Source: a virus
Lineage: Duplodnaviria; Caudoviricetes
Direction: 5' to 3' (one strand)
DNA length: 64,000 nucleotides
IMG/VR virus record: IMGVR_UViG_3300010163_000003
Coordinates: 1-64,000 of that record
This document shows, piece after piece, positions 10,265 through 29,324 of the stretch. A model generated the notes under the pieces. It made no database searches. It was not told the origin of the DNA and worked only from the letters and a program-made list of their open reading frames with translations. Position 1 is the first letter of the stretch, and the number at the start of each line of letters is the position of its first letter. The translations under genes were made by a program, and so were the position numbers.

Positions 10265-10304
10265 ATGATATAGATATGATATAGATATGATATAGATATG
10301 ATAT
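10265..10304. repeat. Tandem repeat, 11-bp unit ATGATATAGAT x about 3.6
   Basis: Direct reading of sequence. Confidence 0.8.
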
Positions 10305-10328
10305 GGACCAGAAAGGAGAAAATGATAA

Positions 10329-20950: not shown

Positions 20951-21490
20951 ATGGCTAGTTATCCAGGCGCACGTAGAATATGGAATAAACATAGCGAATT
21001 CGCTGGCAAAGCTGATGCTGACAAGGTTCAAAAAGAAATTGACCTTATTGCATCTCAAGACCCTAACGGCAAATGTACCGATGAAGGATTGGTAGACTAT
21101 GCAAGAAACAATCCTAACAGCGAATCTCATAACTGCTTCGAGTGGAACGACACAACTGCGGCAGAAAAATACAGATTACATCAAGCTGCTCGTATTAAAG
21201 TTTCCATCATAACTGTATACGACAAAACTGACAAAGATACTGAAAGCAGCGTCAATCAAAATACGAGCGTCCCAATTCAGGTAGTTACTAACCATGCTTT
21301 AAAGACACCAGGAGATGGGCATAAGAATATTGAATTCATTCTTCAGGACAAGAATGATTCAAAAGTTCTTGACGAACAAATGAAGCAAGCATGCATTCAG
21401 TTCATGGATAATTTTGAACGTAGATGGTGTCTTGCCCCATCATTCAATCAAGTATTCCCCAAACTACAAGCATTCGTAAACTCGTTATAA
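20951..21490 (+). CDS. Conserved phage protein (H.CFEW.D..AAEKYRLHQA motif), candidate accessory of the Cas7-like locus
   Basis: gaggag RBS; motif recognised by eye; sits immediately upstream of the pentamer array. Confidence 0.65.
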   Translation: MASYPGARRIWNKHSEFAGKADADKVQKEIDLIASQDPNGKCTDEGLVDYARNNPNSESHNCFEWNDTTAAEKYRLHQAARIKVSIITVYDKTDKDTESSVNQNTSVPIQVVTNHALKTPGDGHKNIEFILQDKNDSKVLDEQMKQACIQFMDNFERRWCLAPSFNQVFPKLQAFVNSL

Positions 21491-21530
21491 AAGTATGGGG
21501 CGCTAACGCGCCCCTACTGAATTATAAATT

Positions 21531-21791
21531 ACATGCCAAAATAGGCAATCTTAAATTATCATAGCACACGCTAACATATTATAATATAATACAAAAAATT
21601 AAATCAATAAGCGAGGTCATGACCTCAATACACCAAATGTTACGATAATAAGATTTCAACATAAACTACTTTATTGTAATTTATAATATTGATGTTCGTG
21701 GCTTCGCTTATTGATTTAATAATCAATAAATTTAGATCAAACTATCCTAAATGAAGCAAAAATATGATATTATATTATACCGTAAAATAGA
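21531..21791 (+). repeat. Pentamer (NYA-NN) array part 1: three modules (21531-21595, 21625-21685, 21732-21791), module 2 enclosed by a long stem
   Basis: A at every 5th base, e.g. tta ga|tca aa|cta tc|cta aa|tga ag|caa aa|ata tg|ata tt|ata tt|ata cc|gta aa|ata ga; stem 21598-21630/21687-21720 with G-U pairs. Confidence 0.85.
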
Positions 21792-21801
21792 GGATTTAAA
21801 T

Positions 21802-22011
21802 ATGGATGAAAACGAAAATGTAACTATTTGTTGTGATTGTCAATATTGTTGCGACAAATATAGTTTCCCATTACCAAATGATATACCCGAATTTAACGGA
21901 AATAATTTTCTTCTTAAAGCATATTGTTGTTGTATGGAAGATTGTGAGCTATACGGCAAACGTATTGATATGCTTGGGATTACTTCCTGTGAATATTTTA
22001 AAGAATTATAG
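21802..22011 (+). CDS. Small Cys-rich hypothetical protein inside the array
   Basis: gagg RBS before ATG 21802; CCDC.YCC, CCC..DC. Confidence 0.55.
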   Translation: MDENENVTICCDCQYCCDKYSFPLPNDIPEFNGNNFLLKAYCCCMEDCELYGKRIDMLGITSCEYFKEL

Positions 22012-22024
22012 GAGAGATAGTTAG

Positions 22025-22561
22025 TTGATATATAAAACAACAGTTTATATTCCAAGTGGAACGATTGAGAGAGTAAACAGTTTACTTTGTGCTCTTTCTT
22101 TTAAAGATCTTTCTGAAAAAGAAATTAGCAAATATAAGTTTAGAACCAACTCATGTGAAACTATTTTTAATGTGAAGTTCGAAGATAATAGCACATTAAC
22201 ATATGAATTATGTTCTGGCGATTCTAATTATTATGACAATGTTGTATGGAGAAGCGCTGATGGGATTGAAGAAACAATAGAATGTTCTTTCAGATTATTC
22301 AATGAGATAGAAATTGAAATCAATTCAAACAAATATATTGTTAATCTCATAGAAAATCCTCCTGAACATGGCAAAAAAAGATTAAACGTTACTGTGAATT
22401 GTTTAGCTACTTATAATAGTAGCATACTCGTTCCATATACTATGAATCTTGAAGAAGCTATACAATATGCTGAAAAACATATTGATGATATACCCCTTGG
22501 TTTATTGGAATATGTGTCAGACAGTGACAGTATCGATGAAGAAAATTGCAGTTTCGATTAA
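22025..22561 (+). CDS. Hypothetical protein inside the array
   Basis: ggag RBS, TTG start, 178 aa. Confidence 0.55.
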   Translation: MIYKTTVYIPSGTIERVNSLLCALSFKDLSEKEISKYKFRTNSCETIFNVKFEDNSTLTYELCSGDSNYYDNVVWRSADGIEETIECSFRLFNEIEIEINSNKYIVNLIENPPEHGKKRLNVTVNCLATYNSSILVPYTMNLEEAIQYAEKHIDDIPLGLLEYVSDSDSIDEENCSFD

Positions 22562-22607
22562 TAAGCTTTAGCTAGCTTTTAGCTAATTTTCTAGCTAAAA
22601 GCTAGCT

Positions 22608-23680
22608 TTATAGCTTCAAATATTGACTTAAGTATTGTAAGTCGATAAACGAGATTTAGTCTCAATACATGCTATACTATCATAATGTATAACACTATAT
22701 CACACGACAATATATAATATCTTAAGTCAATATTTGAAGCTATAAGTTTCAAAACAGGCCAAAATAGTCTAGCTTAGAATACTATCAGCGTACTATAGGA
22801 TATATTAAAACATTTTATGGTCTCAAATATTGACTTTAAGTCAATGACATCCTATTACAACCCATCTCAACTTAGCTTATAATAGCATAAAATAATATAT
22901 AGTAATATTATTACTTAAAGTCAATATTTGAGACCATAAAGGTCAGCAGATTACAAACTAAGCTTAATTTAGGGTAAATTAAAGTAGGACAATTTTAGCA
23001 TATGCTAGGATATTTTACTTTATGGTTTCAAATATTAGCTTTAAGCTAAAATACAAGCTATGCAATCCTAAAATAAATTAGCACAATCTATGCTATTATA
23101 TGACACTATAAAATATTTAGCTTAAGTCAATATTTGAAACCATAAATTTTTATGGTTTAAGACAAAACGCCATAAAATACGATAGCACATGTAATCATAT
23201 GCAACCATAGGACATGCTATCATAAGATATTTTACTTTATGGTTTCAAATATTGACTTAAGTTAATAACAGAAAAGAGATGTATAATAATGACTATATTA
23301 CTGACTTATCTGGTTTTTGTAATAAAAAATTCCCAGTTGAAAAACATTTTTATGTTAAAACTAATATTTAAGGTCATAAACCTTATCAGAATGTAATGTA
23401 ATCTATCGCATCTCATGACAACATATGGCACCTTAACATAATATAAAACAGTTTATGATCTTAAATATTAGTTTTAGCTAATAATAACAAACAAAAATAC
23501 TATATGATAAAACACTTCATTATAATTTAGACCAAAGTAAAAATAATACAAAGTATTTTATATGTAGACACCGCTACTTTTACAAAAGTAGCGGTGTGTG
23601 CTTATAAAAGCAAGCTTAAAGTAGGTCATTTAAAAATAGTTTAGCACATCCCACCTTAAGCTAATATAGCACATAATATC
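22608..23680 (+). repeat. Pentamer (NYA-NN) array part 2: nine modules separated by alternating-orientation ~26-bp repeats
   Basis: Modules 22662-22721, 22749-22814, 22842-22906, 22943-23019, 23053-23117, 23172-23236, 23383-23452, 23487-23562, 23611-23680; repeat consensus tttatggtYtcaaatattgacttaag. Confidence 0.9.
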
Positions 23681-23714
23681 ATGATATTTTAATTATTATT
23701 TGGAGGAATTAAAA

Positions 23715-24446
23715 ATGGCCACAAAAACTAAAGACGAAAACAACACTCCTATTGAAGAAAAGCTTACTCCGGGCACAGTTATCAAAATGAAACCCTTTGT
23801 TAAGGAACGACTTCAGGTAACTATTTGCAGCGATGACCACTGCGATCTTATTTTGAATAAGATGACACAAGAAGCTATTGAAGAAATCAAAAGCACACAA
23901 ACTAAGACGGCTAAGGGCACAAAGAAAGCGGTCAATATGTGGCAAAGGCTTATTGAGGGCCTGCATTGGATGGACAAGTATACTGGCCCGTATGTAGATG
24001 ATAAAGGCAAAATTCTGCATACAGAAGAAGCATACTATGACCTACTTAAAACCAATCGTATCGGTTACGATGCAAGTGGCATCAAGAAGGGTCTCTGCGA
24101 TGCGGCTGTTCGTGTACTTGGCGAATCTAAATCTACCATTATCAATGCCAATCTTCAGGTTATTCCTGAGAAGAGAAATCTCGTTCAGATTGAATTCAAC
24201 GAGAGTGATATTGATGAATCCGTAATCACTAACTGGAAAGGCTCTGCTTTCATTACCTATCGTACTATCCTGCGCGGATGGTCTAGTACATTTGCTGTAG
24301 AATATCTGCCAGATAATTTGTCTCGTGATCAGGTTATCGAGATGTTCCAGGCGATGGGATTTAGCGGCGGTCTTGGCGCACATCGTGTTGGGCTTAAAGG
24401 CGGCACTCATGGTAAATTCCATGTAGATAAGGTAATGCAACTCTAA
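23715..24446 (+). CDS. Stand-alone Cas7/RAMP-like RNA-binding protein (Vipr-like candidate), 243 aa
   Basis: ggagg RBS; internal IGYDASGIKKGLCDAA helix, YR..L.GW...F.VEY strand, C-terminal Gly-rich loop GFSGGLGAHR..LKGGTHGKFHV. Confidence 0.7.
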   Translation: MATKTKDENNTPIEEKLTPGTVIKMKPFVKERLQVTICSDDHCDLILNKMTQEAIEEIKSTQTKTAKGTKKAVNMWQRLIEGLHWMDKYTGPYVDDKGKILHTEEAYYDLLKTNRIGYDASGIKKGLCDAAVRVLGESKSTIINANLQVIPEKRNLVQIEFNESDIDESVITNWKGSAFITYRTILRGWSSTFAVEYLPDNLSRDQVIEMFQAMGFSGGLGAHRVGLKGGTHGKFHVDKVMQL

Positions 24447-24465
24447 AAGTTAATAGGAGATAAAA

Positions 24466-25428
24466 ATGGCTAAGAAGTATATTGATTCTCAAGCCGTTAT
24501 AGACAACCTAGATACTAACGGTGACGAGCTTACAGACAAGAGTAAAAGACTTGAAGTAATAAATAAATGCGGTTTAACCCAAAGACTTCAAGAAGTACTG
24601 ATTACGCCAGCTATGGCAACCGGACTTCTTCGCCTTAATCATGGTACTCGTGTTCGTCATGGCAATAAAGAAAAGATGAAATTTGACATGACTCATGGCC
24701 TTTGGGGAACCTGTGATAGCATGATTATGTTTAGTCCTAATGGTAATCTTGTTAATGGCAAAATGATATTAGAGGCTATACAAGAAAGCGGAATTGCACA
24801 AAGACTTGTGGTTATGACAGGCGTTGTACCGCATGTAGAAATAGATACTGGCGCTAATAGAACTCCGTTTGAAGTCATAACCATGTATAGAATTGGTGGC
24901 AGTAATTATGATGCTATACGTACTCAAAAAGTTATATCCGCTATTGGTAGCATGCTGCGTCGTAAATGTAGGCATGGCATGCGAATAGAAAATAGCGATT
25001 ATTGTCGGCTTTTTGAAACGTATAAAGATACCCTGCTTGAACTCCGTGATGTGTTAAATACATATCAGGGAGATGCTTATATCAATGCAGCTTTGATAGC
25101 AGCAAGATTAGATGGCGTTGATATTGGAGACATTTCTAGTTTTAAAGCTGCTTATTGTAAAATGGGTAGAAGTTTAAACGTGGATGATGCTCCAGTCAAC
25201 GTTTTTTGGGATTATTATCATGAAATACTCAGTGGATGCAGCACGAATCATTTTAAAGATAAGAAATTTGCAGCTACACAAACTGCCTTATATGCTTATC
25301 TGAATCAAACTACAATGACAAAGAAAGATTATATGCACTCCAGCTCTAAAGCGATTCATGATTACGATATTACGTGGCTGAATCAAACTATAAATGGAGG
25401 TTATGATTCTACAAAGTTCCATCTATAA
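24466..25428 (+). CDS. ParB/Srx-like N-terminal domain protein with degenerate active-site motif
   Basis: ITPAMA..LL..N...R, G.W, I.F...G.L.NGKMILEAI..SG, IDTG..R pattern; DGQHR replaced by NGKMI. Confidence 0.55.
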   Translation: MAKKYIDSQAVIDNLDTNGDELTDKSKRLEVINKCGLTQRLQEVLITPAMATGLLRLNHGTRVRHGNKEKMKFDMTHGLWGTCDSMIMFSPNGNLVNGKMILEAIQESGIAQRLVVMTGVVPHVEIDTGANRTPFEVITMYRIGGSNYDAIRTQKVISAIGSMLRRKCRHGMRIENSDYCRLFETYKDTLLELRDVLNTYQGDAYINAALIAARLDGVDIGDISSFKAAYCKMGRSLNVDDAPVNVFWDYYHEILSGCSTNHFKDKKFAATQTALYAYLNQTTMTKKDYMHSSSKAIHDYDITWLNQTINGGYDSTKFHL

Positions 25429-26101: not shown

Positions 26102-26728
26102 ATGAACACAAAAAGAGTAATGCGAGGAATTTGTACACTGTGTCTCGTAGGAGCAGCATCTATCTTCTCAGCCGGAGCTTCATCTACAGAGACAAAAATC
26201 GTTATGGATCTTAAAGCTAAACAAATATCTGAGCAAGTTAAAATTATGGAGACTGCACACGATATGGCTGAATGTGCTAGAGCATTAGGCGAAAATGAAA
26301 ATAGCGTCGTTATACATACAGCGAAAGATTATTATAATGACGCTATGAACGCCCATAAGACTTTTTCTTCTGAATATGAAACTCTTTCTAACATGTATAA
26401 TGCTGAAGTTAAAGCAGAAGAAGAACAACGTCAAAAAGGTTCTTATATTGGCAAGTTTCTCGTTAGCGCCTATACTCCTTCTCCAAGCGAAAATGGAGGA
26501 TATGCTGTAACATGTACAGGCGTACCGCTTGCAGGGAACGAATGGGCATTATGTGCCGTAGACCCTAATGTTATTCCTCTTGGTTCTACTATTTATATTG
26601 AAGGCGTAGGTAATGTACGATGCCAGGATACAGGCGGGGCCATTAAAGGAAATCGAATTGACCTTCTGGTCGGATATGGAGAAGCAAATCGATGGGGAGT
26701 ACAAACAAGAAACGTATATTTAAGGTAA
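26102..26728 (+). CDS. Secreted 3D-domain (cell-wall lytic transglycosylase-like) protein
   Basis: Signal-peptide-like N-terminus; SAY, AVDPNVIPLGS, DTGGAIKGNRID motifs. Confidence 0.88.
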   Translation: MNTKRVMRGICTLCLVGAASIFSAGASSTETKIVMDLKAKQISEQVKIMETAHDMAECARALGENENSVVIHTAKDYYNDAMNAHKTFSSEYETLSNMYNAEVKAEEEQRQKGSYIGKFLVSAYTPSPSENGGYAVTCTGVPLAGNEWALCAVDPNVIPLGSTIYIEGVGNVRCQDTGGAIKGNRIDLLVGYGEANRWGVQTRNVYLR

Positions 26729-27538: not shown

Positions 27539-28567
27539 AACGCTTCTGAGAAAAAGGCCATAGTTAAACGTGCATGTGAGATTATTTACTCTAACGAGGG
27601 TGACTATGGCTCTGTAAACAAGAATGACAATGGTGCTTTGTCAATAGGCAAAGTGCAATGGCACGCAGATAGAGCATTATCTCTTTTAAGAGATATCATT
27701 AAAGCTAACGAATCTCAAGCTAAGACAATCTTAGGGGATACTCTTTTTAATGAAATTAAAACTACTACCAGCAATTGGAGTAATCGTATAGTTAATACAA
27801 TCGAAGCAAACTGCATTACTAAATTACTCATAACAAGTGCCGGTAAAAAAGTACAGGATAAGCTTGCTGAGAAAGATGTAGAAAGCTATATTGATATTGG
27901 AATATCTTATGGTATTCAAGATCCCGATTCTCTTATCTACTTTGCTGATGGAATCAATCAATATGGTTCATATTCTAAAGTGTGGAAAAATATCGCTATT
28001 AAATCTGTACATAATGGTGATACGTTAGACTCTATACATGCCGCAGCATCTTCCATGGCAAGTCAGTATATCTCTAGACGTATTAAGACATATAACATCA
28101 TTAAAGGGCATAATACAGTAAGTAAATCTAATACCTACACTAAATATAAAGACTCAAATAAAGTAAAATACATACAAGGTTGGGTAAATACTCAATTATT
28201 AGGTACTAACTTTACAGCTTTAAGTGTAGATGGCGTTATAGGTCTTAAAACTAAAGCCGGGATTGTTAAGTGTTTACAACAGTGTTTAAATCATGAATTT
28301 AATGCCAATCTTGATGTGGATGGAATATTTGGTCGCATGACGCAAATAGCATGCCCTACGGTTACTACATATAAGTGCAATTCTGGAGATATAGTTCACA
28401 TCATACAATTTGCTTTATATTGTAACGATATAGAGATAGATAAGTTTGATTATTATTATGGCTCTAAAACTGCTAATGCTGTAGGGATATTTCAAAGACG
28501 TAACAATTTACCGATTACCGAACGAGTTGATGATACAGTCTTTAAGTCGCTATTCGATGGCTTTTAA
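27536..28567 (+). CDS. Putative endolysin: lysozyme-like N-terminal domain plus peptidoglycan-binding repeats
   Basis: NEGDYGSVN.NDNGALSIGK.QWH; L.VDG.IG..T and L.VDGIFG..T PG-binding motifs. Confidence 0.75.
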   Translation: MNASEKKAIVKRACEIIYSNEGDYGSVNKNDNGALSIGKVQWHADRALSLLRDIIKANESQAKTILGDTLFNEIKTTTSNWSNRIVNTIEANCITKLLITSAGKKVQDKLAEKDVESYIDIGISYGIQDPDSLIYFADGINQYGSYSKVWKNIAIKSVHNGDTLDSIHAAASSMASQYISRRIKTYNIIKGHNTVSKSNTYTKYKDSNKVKYIQGWVNTQLLGTNFTALSVDGVIGLKTKAGIVKCLQQCLNHEFNANLDVDGIFGRMTQIACPTVTTYKCNSGDIVHIIQFALYCNDIEIDKFDYYYGSKTANAVGIFQRRNNLPITERVDDTVFKSLFDGF

Positions 28568-28607
28568 TGACGGCTAACGCCGTCCAACTAGATTTTGAGG
28601 TGATAAT

Positions 28608-29324
28608 ATGAAATTACAAGCGATGAACAAGAAAATTACTGACTATGGCTATGATTATGAAATTGAATATGGCAATCCTGAATTTCATGGTCATGTTAAA
28701 GGCGTTGAGCTTTGTGTAATAGATGCTAGAACTGGATATGTTACAGAAAATCATCTTCCTAATAGCGTTAAGGAAAATAGAGATGAAGTTCTTGACAAAA
28801 TCCTTAATGATGATAGCATTATTAAAGTTGTCAATAATGCTCTTATTGCAACTGAAAGTGGCGGATTAGTCCCAGAAGATATTTATATGCTTCCATATAT
28901 GGTGATAGACCATTCTTGTTTACAGCCTACAGCCAATTTTGTGAGCGTAGTACCAGAAACAATGTTAGATCCATCCGATTTGCAATATTGTATGGATATA
29001 GAAGTACTGTTCTGCTGCAATAATCTTAACAGATATATGACATTGCATCTTCAGTCTCATGCAACTCCTGTTATTGACTTAGTTTTATATGTGTTTAGCA
29101 GCGATAATGACGATCTTGATGAGTTCTTAAAGAACGCTACTGATATCAAACTTACGCCTACTGAAAATCATGAACATGCTGTTACATTAGATATGTACAA
29201 TGAATGCGGAGATAGATTTGATATTAAATTTCCATCTATCGATCATCTTGCAGATCGTATTACGTCAATACGTCTTTTAGACTGCAAACCGCTTACGACT
29301 TCAACTCCAGCTGAGGATGATTAA
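28608..29324 (+). CDS. Hypothetical protein
   Basis: gaggtg RBS. Confidence 0.6.
   Translation: MKLQAMNKKITDYGYDYEIEYGNPEFHGHVKGVELCVIDARTGYVTENHLPNSVKENRDEVLDKILNDDSIIKVVNNALIATESGGLVPEDIYMLPYMVIDHSCLQPTANFVSVVPETMLDPSDLQYCMDIEVLFCCNNLNRYMTLHLQSHATPVIDLVLYVFSSDNDDLDEFLKNATDIKLTPTENHEHAVTLDMYNECGDRFDIKFPSIDHLADRITSIRLLDCKPLTTSTPAEDD

Follow-up and report, generated by a model that had tools for sequence, protein, structure and literature searches.

The first 64,000 nucleotides of the IMG/VR record IMGVR_UViG_3300010163_000003, a virus of the class Caudoviricetes (this stretch is hereafter the window, to which coordinates refer unless another source is named), contain a locus that probably encodes an RNA-guided system of the VIPR type. 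It is characterized by three components: a lone RAMP protein remotely related to Vipr; an array of tandem pentamer tracts with a G-free constant part, whose putative guides are enclosed by stems; and an accessory gene unrelated to vap1, the accessory gene of the SUSP1 VIPR. VIPR itself is already in the literature, and a preprint of October 2026 describes motifs other than GGY in a general way (10.64898/2026.10.21.760802). The present locus is not a new kind of system; it features a non-canonical, G-free guide scaffold, a stem-punctuated array and an accessory gene of its own. The original prediction, made by a model from the DNA letters, had read the locus as a solitary Cas7-like protein with an array of pentamer-coded guide modules; this reading held in every computationally checkable part, with the corrections of extent given below.

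VIPR systems, described in 2026, combine a lone RAMP protein (Vipr), an accessory gene (vap) and vrRNAs of 9-16 GGY-NN pentamers with a 3' tail; one protomer binds each repeat, and the NN dinucleotides pair with double-stranded DNA, every third base being skipped (bioRxiv 10.64898/2026.04.26.720920, 10.64898/2026.04.26.720927). The published targets lie in rival phages and satellites, and the sole characterised Vipr binds double-stranded DNA without cleavage; seven types are distinguished, with the alternative consensus sequences NNNGG, YNNNG and NNNNG and with staggered or hammerhead-interspersed arrays (10.64898/2026.04.26.720920, 10.64898/2026.04.26.720927). The original prediction had likened the locus to the recently reported VIPR systems with GGY-NN repeats; the papers on these systems do describe such guides, and the protein of the window is, as detailed below, a remote homologue of the SUSP1 Vipr.

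The pentamer tracts

Consecutive in-register N-[CT]-A-N-N pentamers were scanned for on both strands of the window and of the 218,431-bp phage genome. Perfect runs of 9-14 units occur in the window only on the + strand at 21551-23680, the longest run in the rest of it being 6 units; outside the array the genome has a single run of at least 7 units (7 units, minus strand, genome position 179541). The 1465 non-coding bases of the array hold 11 runs of at least 7 units, as against a mean of 0.027 and a maximum of 1 in 2000 dinucleotide-preserving shuffles, and the autocorrelation of YA (Y being C or T) has its maxima at lags 5, 10, 15, 20 and 25 (0.32, 0.31, 0.25, 0.23 and 0.17). Period-5 spectral power is weak when the whole region is taken together because the tracts sit in different registers; hence, the run-length and autocorrelation tests were used instead. 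The pentamer periodicity, whose comparison with shuffled sequence had been proposed as a check at the outset, is real and confined to the array locus.

When isolated non-conforming units are tolerated, the array resolves into 12 tracts of 6-17 pentamers on the + strand at 21531-21791 and 22662-23680 (Table 1), two of which are broken by a 1-nt slip (22784 and 22994). The number of modules, the slips in a few of them and the example quoted at 23053 are thus as originally described, whereas the lengths had been given as 12-15 pentamers. The modules had also been taken to extend across the whole span, but 21803-22561 is occupied by two open reading frames (ORFs) and 23263-23355 is non-periodic. 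Save for these two small ORFs, the + strand is non-coding between the stop codon of the 179-aa accessory gene (21490) and the ribosome-binding site of the 243-aa RAMP gene, the latter having GGAGG at 23702-23706 and its ATG at 23715. With the last tract ending at 23680, the array runs up to this site as predicted.

A logo of 157 units agrees with the proposed alphabet: position 1 is degenerate (A.49/T.27; G 9%), position 2 is a pyrimidine (T.66/C.29), position 3 is A (.99), G makes up at most 1% at positions 2-3, position 4 varies (A.36/T.37/G.15/C.12) and position 5 is near uniform (.28/.23/.21/.28). Units were selected on positions 2-3, which makes the values there partly circular, a reservation that does not touch the run lengths. 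At positions 4-5 the four bases are nearly balanced despite surroundings of 72% A+T, and the series differ from tract to tract. The constant part is Y-A, neither GGY nor any G-containing consensus (NNNGG, YNNNG, NNNNG).

Stems punctuating the array

The original prediction had called the array stem-punctuated; the stems were confirmed, and the layout is conserved in relatives. Five stems are present in the window, with predicted RNA folding energies of -34 to -48 kcal/mol (z -6.7 to -10.4). The arms of the array are of two types, one approximating TTTATGGTTTCAAATATTGACTTAAG and the other its complement, both of which alternate with the tracts, so that each arm is able to pair with either neighbour; in the minimum-energy fold of the whole array, the third stem is formed by 23118-23147 and 23235-23264. 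By virtue of this alternating-arm pairing, tracts 4 to 10 can each be enclosed by a stem or come to lie between two stems, while tracts 1, 11 and 12 have no enclosing stem. The pair of arms around tract 2 is unrelated in sequence to the others. Stems 1 and 2 differ at several positions and by one inserted base; since both remain perfectly paired, these differences are compensated. The stems carry 1-4 G-U pairs on the + strand, which are mismatches in DNA or in minus-strand RNA; the fold energies of the two strands are similar, and each arm holds a small local palindrome. No Rfam family, the hammerhead included, was found in 21400-23800 at E<=1.

Table 1. Coordinates of the components of the locus in the window
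Feature	Coordinates	Strand	Remarks
Accessory gene, candidate vap of the clade	20951..21490	+	179 aa; PHROG 15946
GC-rich hairpin behind accessory gene	21497..21514	+	from sequence; terminator-like on minus strand only in terminator listing
Tract 1	21531..21595	+	13 pentamers, 12 conforming; no enclosing stem
Stem enclosing tract 2	21598..21720	+	arms 21598-21622 / 21696-21720; 22/25 pairs; -45.5 kcal/mol, z -9.8
Tract 2	21656-21690	+	7 units; inside stem 21598..21720
Tract 3	21762..21791	+	6 units; adjoins inserted ORFs; possibly a remnant
Stem 1	22608..22745	+	arms 22608-22632 / 22721-22745; 25/25 bp; z -8.95
Tract 4	22662-22731	+	14 units; inside stem 1
Tract 5	22749..22819	+	7 + 7 units, 1-nt slip at 22784; between stems 1 and 2
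Stem 2	22814..22940	+	arms 22814-22841 / 22913-22940; 28/28 bp; z -10.4
Tract 6	22847-22906	+	12 units; inside stem 2
Tract 7	22964..23024	+	6 + 6 units, 1-nt slip at 22994; between stems 2 and 3
Stem 3	23019..23146	+	arms 23019-23041 / 23124-23146; 21/23 bp; z -6.7
Tract 8	23053-23117	+	13 units, 12 conforming; inside stem 3
Tract 9	23157..23241	+	17 units, 14 conforming; enclosable by alternative pairing 23118-23147 / 23235-23264
Stem 4	23356..23476	+	arms 23356-23381 / 23451-23476; 25/26 bp; z -6.9
Tract 10	23383-23457	+	15 units, 14 conforming; inside stem 4
Tract 11	23487..23541	+	11 units, 10 conforming
Hairpin between tracts 11 and 12	23556..23609	+	core 23568-23581 / 23584-23597
Tract 12	23616..23680	+	13 units, 12 conforming; ends 22 nt 5' of the GGAGG of the vipr-like gene
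Vipr-like RAMP protein	23715..24446	+	243 aa

The Vipr-like RAMP protein

The 243-aa protein belongs to no Pfam family and has only a weak PHROG match; 71 metagenomic homologues were recovered, and a tblastn search against GenBank phages gave no match. An AlphaFold2 model built with the homologue alignment (predicted local distance difference test, pLDDT, 84) retrieved from the PDB with Foldseek, among the matches listed at E<=0.001, exclusively Csm3, Cmr4, type VII Cas7 or Cas7-11 (51/51). The protein is hence predicted to adopt the RAMP/Cas7 fold that the original prediction had assigned to it. A profile of the family matches the SUSP1 Vipr with 91% probability, and hhalign against a 31-sequence type II profile gives 95.9% (E 5.9e-9), the alignment spanning 56 C-terminal columns that correspond to the last strand-helix-G-loop-strand. 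In a profile search of the PDB the top match, and the sole one below E 0.01, is 36pp, 'SUSP1 Vipr protein' (E 0.0024). Together these comparisons make the protein a remote homologue of the SUSP1 Vipr and place it in the Vipr superfamily. When 1.8 billion cluster representatives were searched with the profile, at least 2000 proteins came back at E<=0.001, which makes the protein of the window one branch of a very large family.

The residues of this region that contact the guide in the SUSP1 Vipr are known from cryo-EM: D177 hydrogen-bonds G1, W178 and R138 contact G2, and R179 contacts the pyrimidine (bioRxiv 10.64898/2026.04.26.720920, 10.64898/2026.04.26.720927; PDB 36pp). In our alignment, R138 and R179 correspond to R183 and R224, both invariant in the window family, while D177-W178 is replaced by A222-H223 in the window protein and by S-G in the sister clade introduced below; the G-loop of the window family additionally has a 5-residue insert relative to SUSP1. 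The apparent loss of the guanine readers D177 and W178 fits the loss of GG from the repeat. Elsewhere in the protein, a conserved acidic G-D-x-D stretch lies behind strand 1 (residues 38-45; S-D-D-H-C-D in the window protein), in what we take to be roughly the region of the catalytic aspartate of Csm3 and Cmr4.

Conservation of the three-part module

Homologous genes in other phages, a further test of the prediction, likewise have N-Y-A-N-N tracts confined to one strand, with a homologue of the accessory gene beside them. Three close relatives (L001, L003 and L007, those with fetchable upstream DNA) encode proteins 55-59% identical to that of the window. In all three, tracts of 13-18 N-Y-A-N-N units lie directly upstream on the gene strand and are enclosed by 27-40 bp stems whose arms are unrelated to those of the window, and a homologue of the 179-aa gene precedes the array on the same strand. 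A sister clade, about 30% identical and with the G-loop GIGSGR, comprises 177 IMG/VR loci, 80 of which were fetched. Here 75/80 loci have at least one run of at least 7 units, with 293 runs on the gene strand and 0 on the opposite one; position by position, the logo reads A.83, C/T 1.0, A 1.0, N, N; the tracts are likewise enclosed by stems; and the accessory homologue is present in 79/80 loci, upstream on the same strand in 78/80. The A-Y-A alphabet belongs to a large clade (the window family and at least 177 IMG/VR sister loci) and is not unique to this phage.

Arm sequences are unrelated from locus to locus and complementary within each locus. Over 101 distinct tracts the duplex formed by cognate flanks has a median of -34.8 kcal/mol, versus -17.8 when the two flanks come from different loci. 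What is conserved is the stem-punctuated layout, not the sequence of the arms. The accessory gene, the stem-punctuated (A/N)-Y-A-N-N array and the vipr-like gene are a conserved unit.

Several smaller features recur in these loci. The first unit is T-C-A-N-N in many tracts (21656, 22662, 22749 and 22785 in the window; 5780 in L001; 1508 and 1834 in L003; 1284, 1415 and 1544 in L007); in the relatives it stands directly 3' of the 5' arm, and enclosed tracts end in A-T-A-G-A C-C-A-A-T running into the 3' arm, such that the two may be conserved start and end signals. The first tract of L001, L003 and L007 has no enclosing stem and is followed by a conserved GC hairpin with the loop TTGAAATATA (L001 5570-5600, L003 1455-1478, L007 1364-1387; in L001 a T-run comes next), which makes it look like a stand-alone guide with its own terminator. 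The N4-N5 series of the first guides of L001 (5494-5568) and L007 (1284-1358) are nearly identical, suggesting that some guides are conserved between phages. At the place matching the GC-rich hairpin of the window (21497..21514), the relatives have a short hairpin.

The accessory gene, its claimed conservation borne out by the homologues described above, is the candidate accessory factor of the G-free clade. The 179-aa product has no Pfam family and no PDB fold match above background, and a comparison with the SUSP1 vap1 product revealed no relationship. The Atlas returned for it only viral hypothetical clusters, one of them named DUF4494, along with a weak Rep3_N look-alike (template-modelling score 0.4).

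Comparison with known systems

The SUSP1 VIPR locus in KT454805 has vipr at 28474-29061 on the minus strand and vap1 at 28031-28471, with GGY-NN runs flanking both. Like the present locus, this type II system has a lone phage RAMP protein with a G-loop (about 200-240 aa) and several guides, each built from about 9-16 tandem pentamers in which NN varies beside constant letters; both also have a small accessory gene, and neither has cas genes or detectable self-targets. The present locus differs in its constant letters, which are N-Y-A here (A-Y-A in the sister clade) and G-free as opposed to G-G-Y; in the 23-28 bp stems that enclose the guides, where SUSP1 has a 3' pseudoknot tail; in its accessory protein, which is not related to vap1; in the upstream position of the array with its approximately 12 guides; and in a protein 48 aa longer. 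The YNNGG repeats, conserved 3' pseudoknot tail and vap1 of type II are all lacking, while the broader features of VIPR, namely Vipr homology, tandem pentamers beside vipr and a minimal cas-free viral locus, are present.

Types I and III-VII resemble the present locus in their relaxed constant part and varied array architectures, and for staggered arrays 1-nt offsets between adjacent guides are described; in the text of the VIPR papers every named alternative consensus keeps at least one G, and no stem-punctuated array is described. A further preprint, COMPASS/Evo-PIN, reports 21 clusters with 6,318 sequences in which non-GGY fixed trinucleotides occur beside Vipr-like folds, its text naming GAC, CAC, WGT and TGH (10.64898/2026.10.21.760802). 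These arrays have period 5 beside Vipr-like folds, as here; the text of the preprint describes no stems or accessory gene and does not mention ATA, AYA or NYA, but its full motif list is in a figure, so the present clade may be included. Figures and tables of motifs aside, the text of the three papers taken together has no ATA, AYA or NYA, no panhandle stems and no RNase III.

The backbone proteins of CRISPR-Cas systems with the same fold (type III Csm3 and Cmr4, type VII Cas7 and Cas7-11) work with a 6-nt step on a contiguous spacer, as part of multi-subunit complexes and together with cas genes and CRISPR repeats; the present locus shows none of these. In agreement with the original prediction, no Cas1 or Cas2 was found in the 218-kb genome and no CRISPR-like tandem array in the window; the repeat-spacer array, Cas1/Cas2 and several RAMPs with a large subunit that mark class 1 CRISPR-Cas systems are absent from this locus.

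Searches for targets

Self-targets, including any through which the phage might regulate genes of its own, were sought in the phage genome with the N4N5, N5N1 and trinucleotide registers and skips of 0-3, and the best scores equalled those of shuffled-unit controls; an absence of self-targets agrees with the published VIPRs. When 87 guides were compared with 0.76 Mb of the relatives' DNA (skips 0-3, two registers), the scores again equalled those of shuffled controls, with no skip rule favoured. Seeds of 10 units from five tracts had 0 exact matches in IMG/VR under the 1-nt-skip rule. One GC-rich seed had 16 matches in bacterial genome contigs, all from high-GC soil bacteria, and its 8-unit version had 95 viral matches; we rejected these as chance matches, none exceeding 25/34 over the full guide. 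The N4N5 dinucleotide spectrum gave no clear fit to codon positions 1-2 in either orientation.

Proposed mechanism and its alternatives

On the reading that we consider likely, the tracts act as guide RNAs along which the Vipr-like protein assembles, each protomer taking up one pentamer; the protein would grip Y-A and, weakly, position 1, leaving N4-N5 free. Transcription would cover the + strand of 21.5-23.7 kb, and every tract of about 12-17 pentamers would be one guide on which the 243-aa protein polymerises. Each protomer would hold (N)-Y-A and present N4-N5 as the reading pair; a pair made of N5-N1 is unlikely, given that A accounts for 83% of position 1 in the sister clade. Following a skip rule, the filament would read a gapped sequence, presumably on DNA from a competitor or a host element, and thereby silence the target. 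The 23-28 bp stems of alternating arms would mark the guide boundaries and are most likely processing sites for an RNase III-type double-strand-specific RNase and/or end caps replacing the SUSP1 3' pseudoknot. A filament of 12-17 units with the published geometry would be an extended helix, whose two ends a closed stem could hardly join; we therefore infer that the stems are either opened during loading or cut, RNase III being the obvious enzyme for perfect duplexes of 25-28 bp. Cutting would free both the enclosed and the inter-stem tracts. RNase III processes long intramolecular or tracrRNA:pre-crRNA duplexes, and RNAs processed in this way have, as here, perfect duplexes of about 25 bp flanking the functional RNA, though this likeness is one of analogy. 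The product of the 179-aa upstream gene would serve as accessory factor.

Several points weigh against this proposal. No target was found under any rule tried. With A at 49%, position 1 is weakly constrained, and the constant part may comprise two letters instead of three. Homology to Vipr is confined to the C-terminal 56 columns, the N-terminal half matching by fold only. It is difficult to see how an extended helical filament could form on an enclosed tract while the 25-bp stem around it stays closed, rather than being cut or melted. Transcription, processing and strand, finally, are inferred from co-orientation with the gene alone.

The lack of targets would also suit a system in which the pentamer RNAs coated by the protein are not guides: they could be a decoy or sponge for a rival Vipr, serve as an RNA scaffold or regulate the downstream gene in the manner of TRAP, and the differences in NN would be drift. 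TRAP binds (G/U)AG triplets at about 5-nt spacing, and the last tract stops 22 nt before the ribosome-binding site of the gene. Solo decoy vrRNAs are described for SUSP1 satellites (10.64898/2026.04.26.720920, 10.64898/2026.04.26.720927). We nevertheless hold this to be unlikely: near-uniform positions 4-5 in a 72% A+T context fit selection for information and not drift, a regulator of one gene would scarcely need 12 different tracts in a locus, or hundreds in the clade as a whole, and the protein is homologous to one shown to be RNA-guided. More improbable still is that the tracts and arms act as DNA, be it as origin iterons, a packaging or recombination site or promoter arrays, with a RAMP protein that is unrelated or DNA-binding. 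The AT-richness of the region, its many palindromic arms, local palindromes compatible with cruciforms and the similar fold energies on both strands would agree with such a role, but the motif keeps strictly to the strand of the gene (293 sister-clade runs, with 0 on the opposite strand), both the RAMP fold and the G-loop serve RNA binding, the stems contain + strand G-U pairs, and promoter-like matches are not enriched (25 against 20.2 expected).

If the tracts are guides, the target could also be RNA, or could be cleaved as by Csm3 and Cmr4, in place of DNA silencing. Among solved structures, the folds nearest to it are those of the RNA-targeting backbone subunits of type III systems, and the acidic G-D-x-D stretch of the protein is conserved; as the sole characterised Vipr binds double-stranded DNA without cutting it, we give this variant very little weight. 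A further proposal, which we advance only tentatively, is that the A-Y-A/N-Y-A clade constitutes a distinct VIPR branch, in which a rebuilt G-loop pocket would read the G-free scaffold, a double-strand-specific RNase would excise panhandle guides, and the pairing geometry or target type may depart from the 1-nt-skip DNA rule.

Other features of the locus and genome

The phage genome is complete, has terminal repeats and contains one RAMP gene; the host of the system is a gut-type jumbo phage. The two ORFs within the array (21803-22011, 69 aa, Cys-rich; 22025-22561, 178 aa, TTG start) match neither Pfam nor PHROG families, and the related loci contain no homologue of them, for which reason they look like a phage-specific insertion. 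Directly 3' of the 178-aa ORF and before the first arm lies a perfect 16-bp hairpin (AGCTAGCTTTTAGCTA / TAGCTAAAAGCTAGCT; 22570-22607). The non-periodic stretch at 23263-23355, about 93 nt long, comes after an arm, where a tract would be expected from the alternation, and may be a degenerated guide or a promoter region.

Downstream, a 320-aa gene (24466-25428) starts 19 nt past the vipr-like gene; it matches PHROG 5931 (unknown function), with a faint ParB_N lead in the Atlas. The original prediction had drawn it into the system, with which it is not conserved: the vipr-like homologues in L002 and L004 are not followed by it and, like the two array ORFs, it falls outside the conserved three-part module. 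Further away, 26102-26728 encodes a 208-aa protein with a 3D domain (PHROG 2307, L-alanyl-D-glutamate peptidase), and a short tandem repeat, ATGATATAGAT x 3.6 at 10265-10305, can also be read with period 5 and is unrelated to the array.

Implications

Central to the published VIPR mechanism are pockets of the protein in which two guanines and a pyrimidine are held fast (10.64898/2026.04.26.720920, 10.64898/2026.04.26.720927). A large natural clade that uses N-Y-A indicates that the scaffold half of the VIPR guide code, that is its constant letters, is able to evolve, and offers a natural specificity-swap set for structural work: D-W in SUSP1, A-H here and S-G in the sister clade. With the system come, in addition, an uncharacterised family of accessory proteins and about 12 putative guides carried by one jumbo phage. 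Vipr/guide pairs from this clade could avoid cross-talk with the SUSP1 type and, should the clade prove to be a distinct branch, would represent an orthogonal programmable system with its own accessory protein family.

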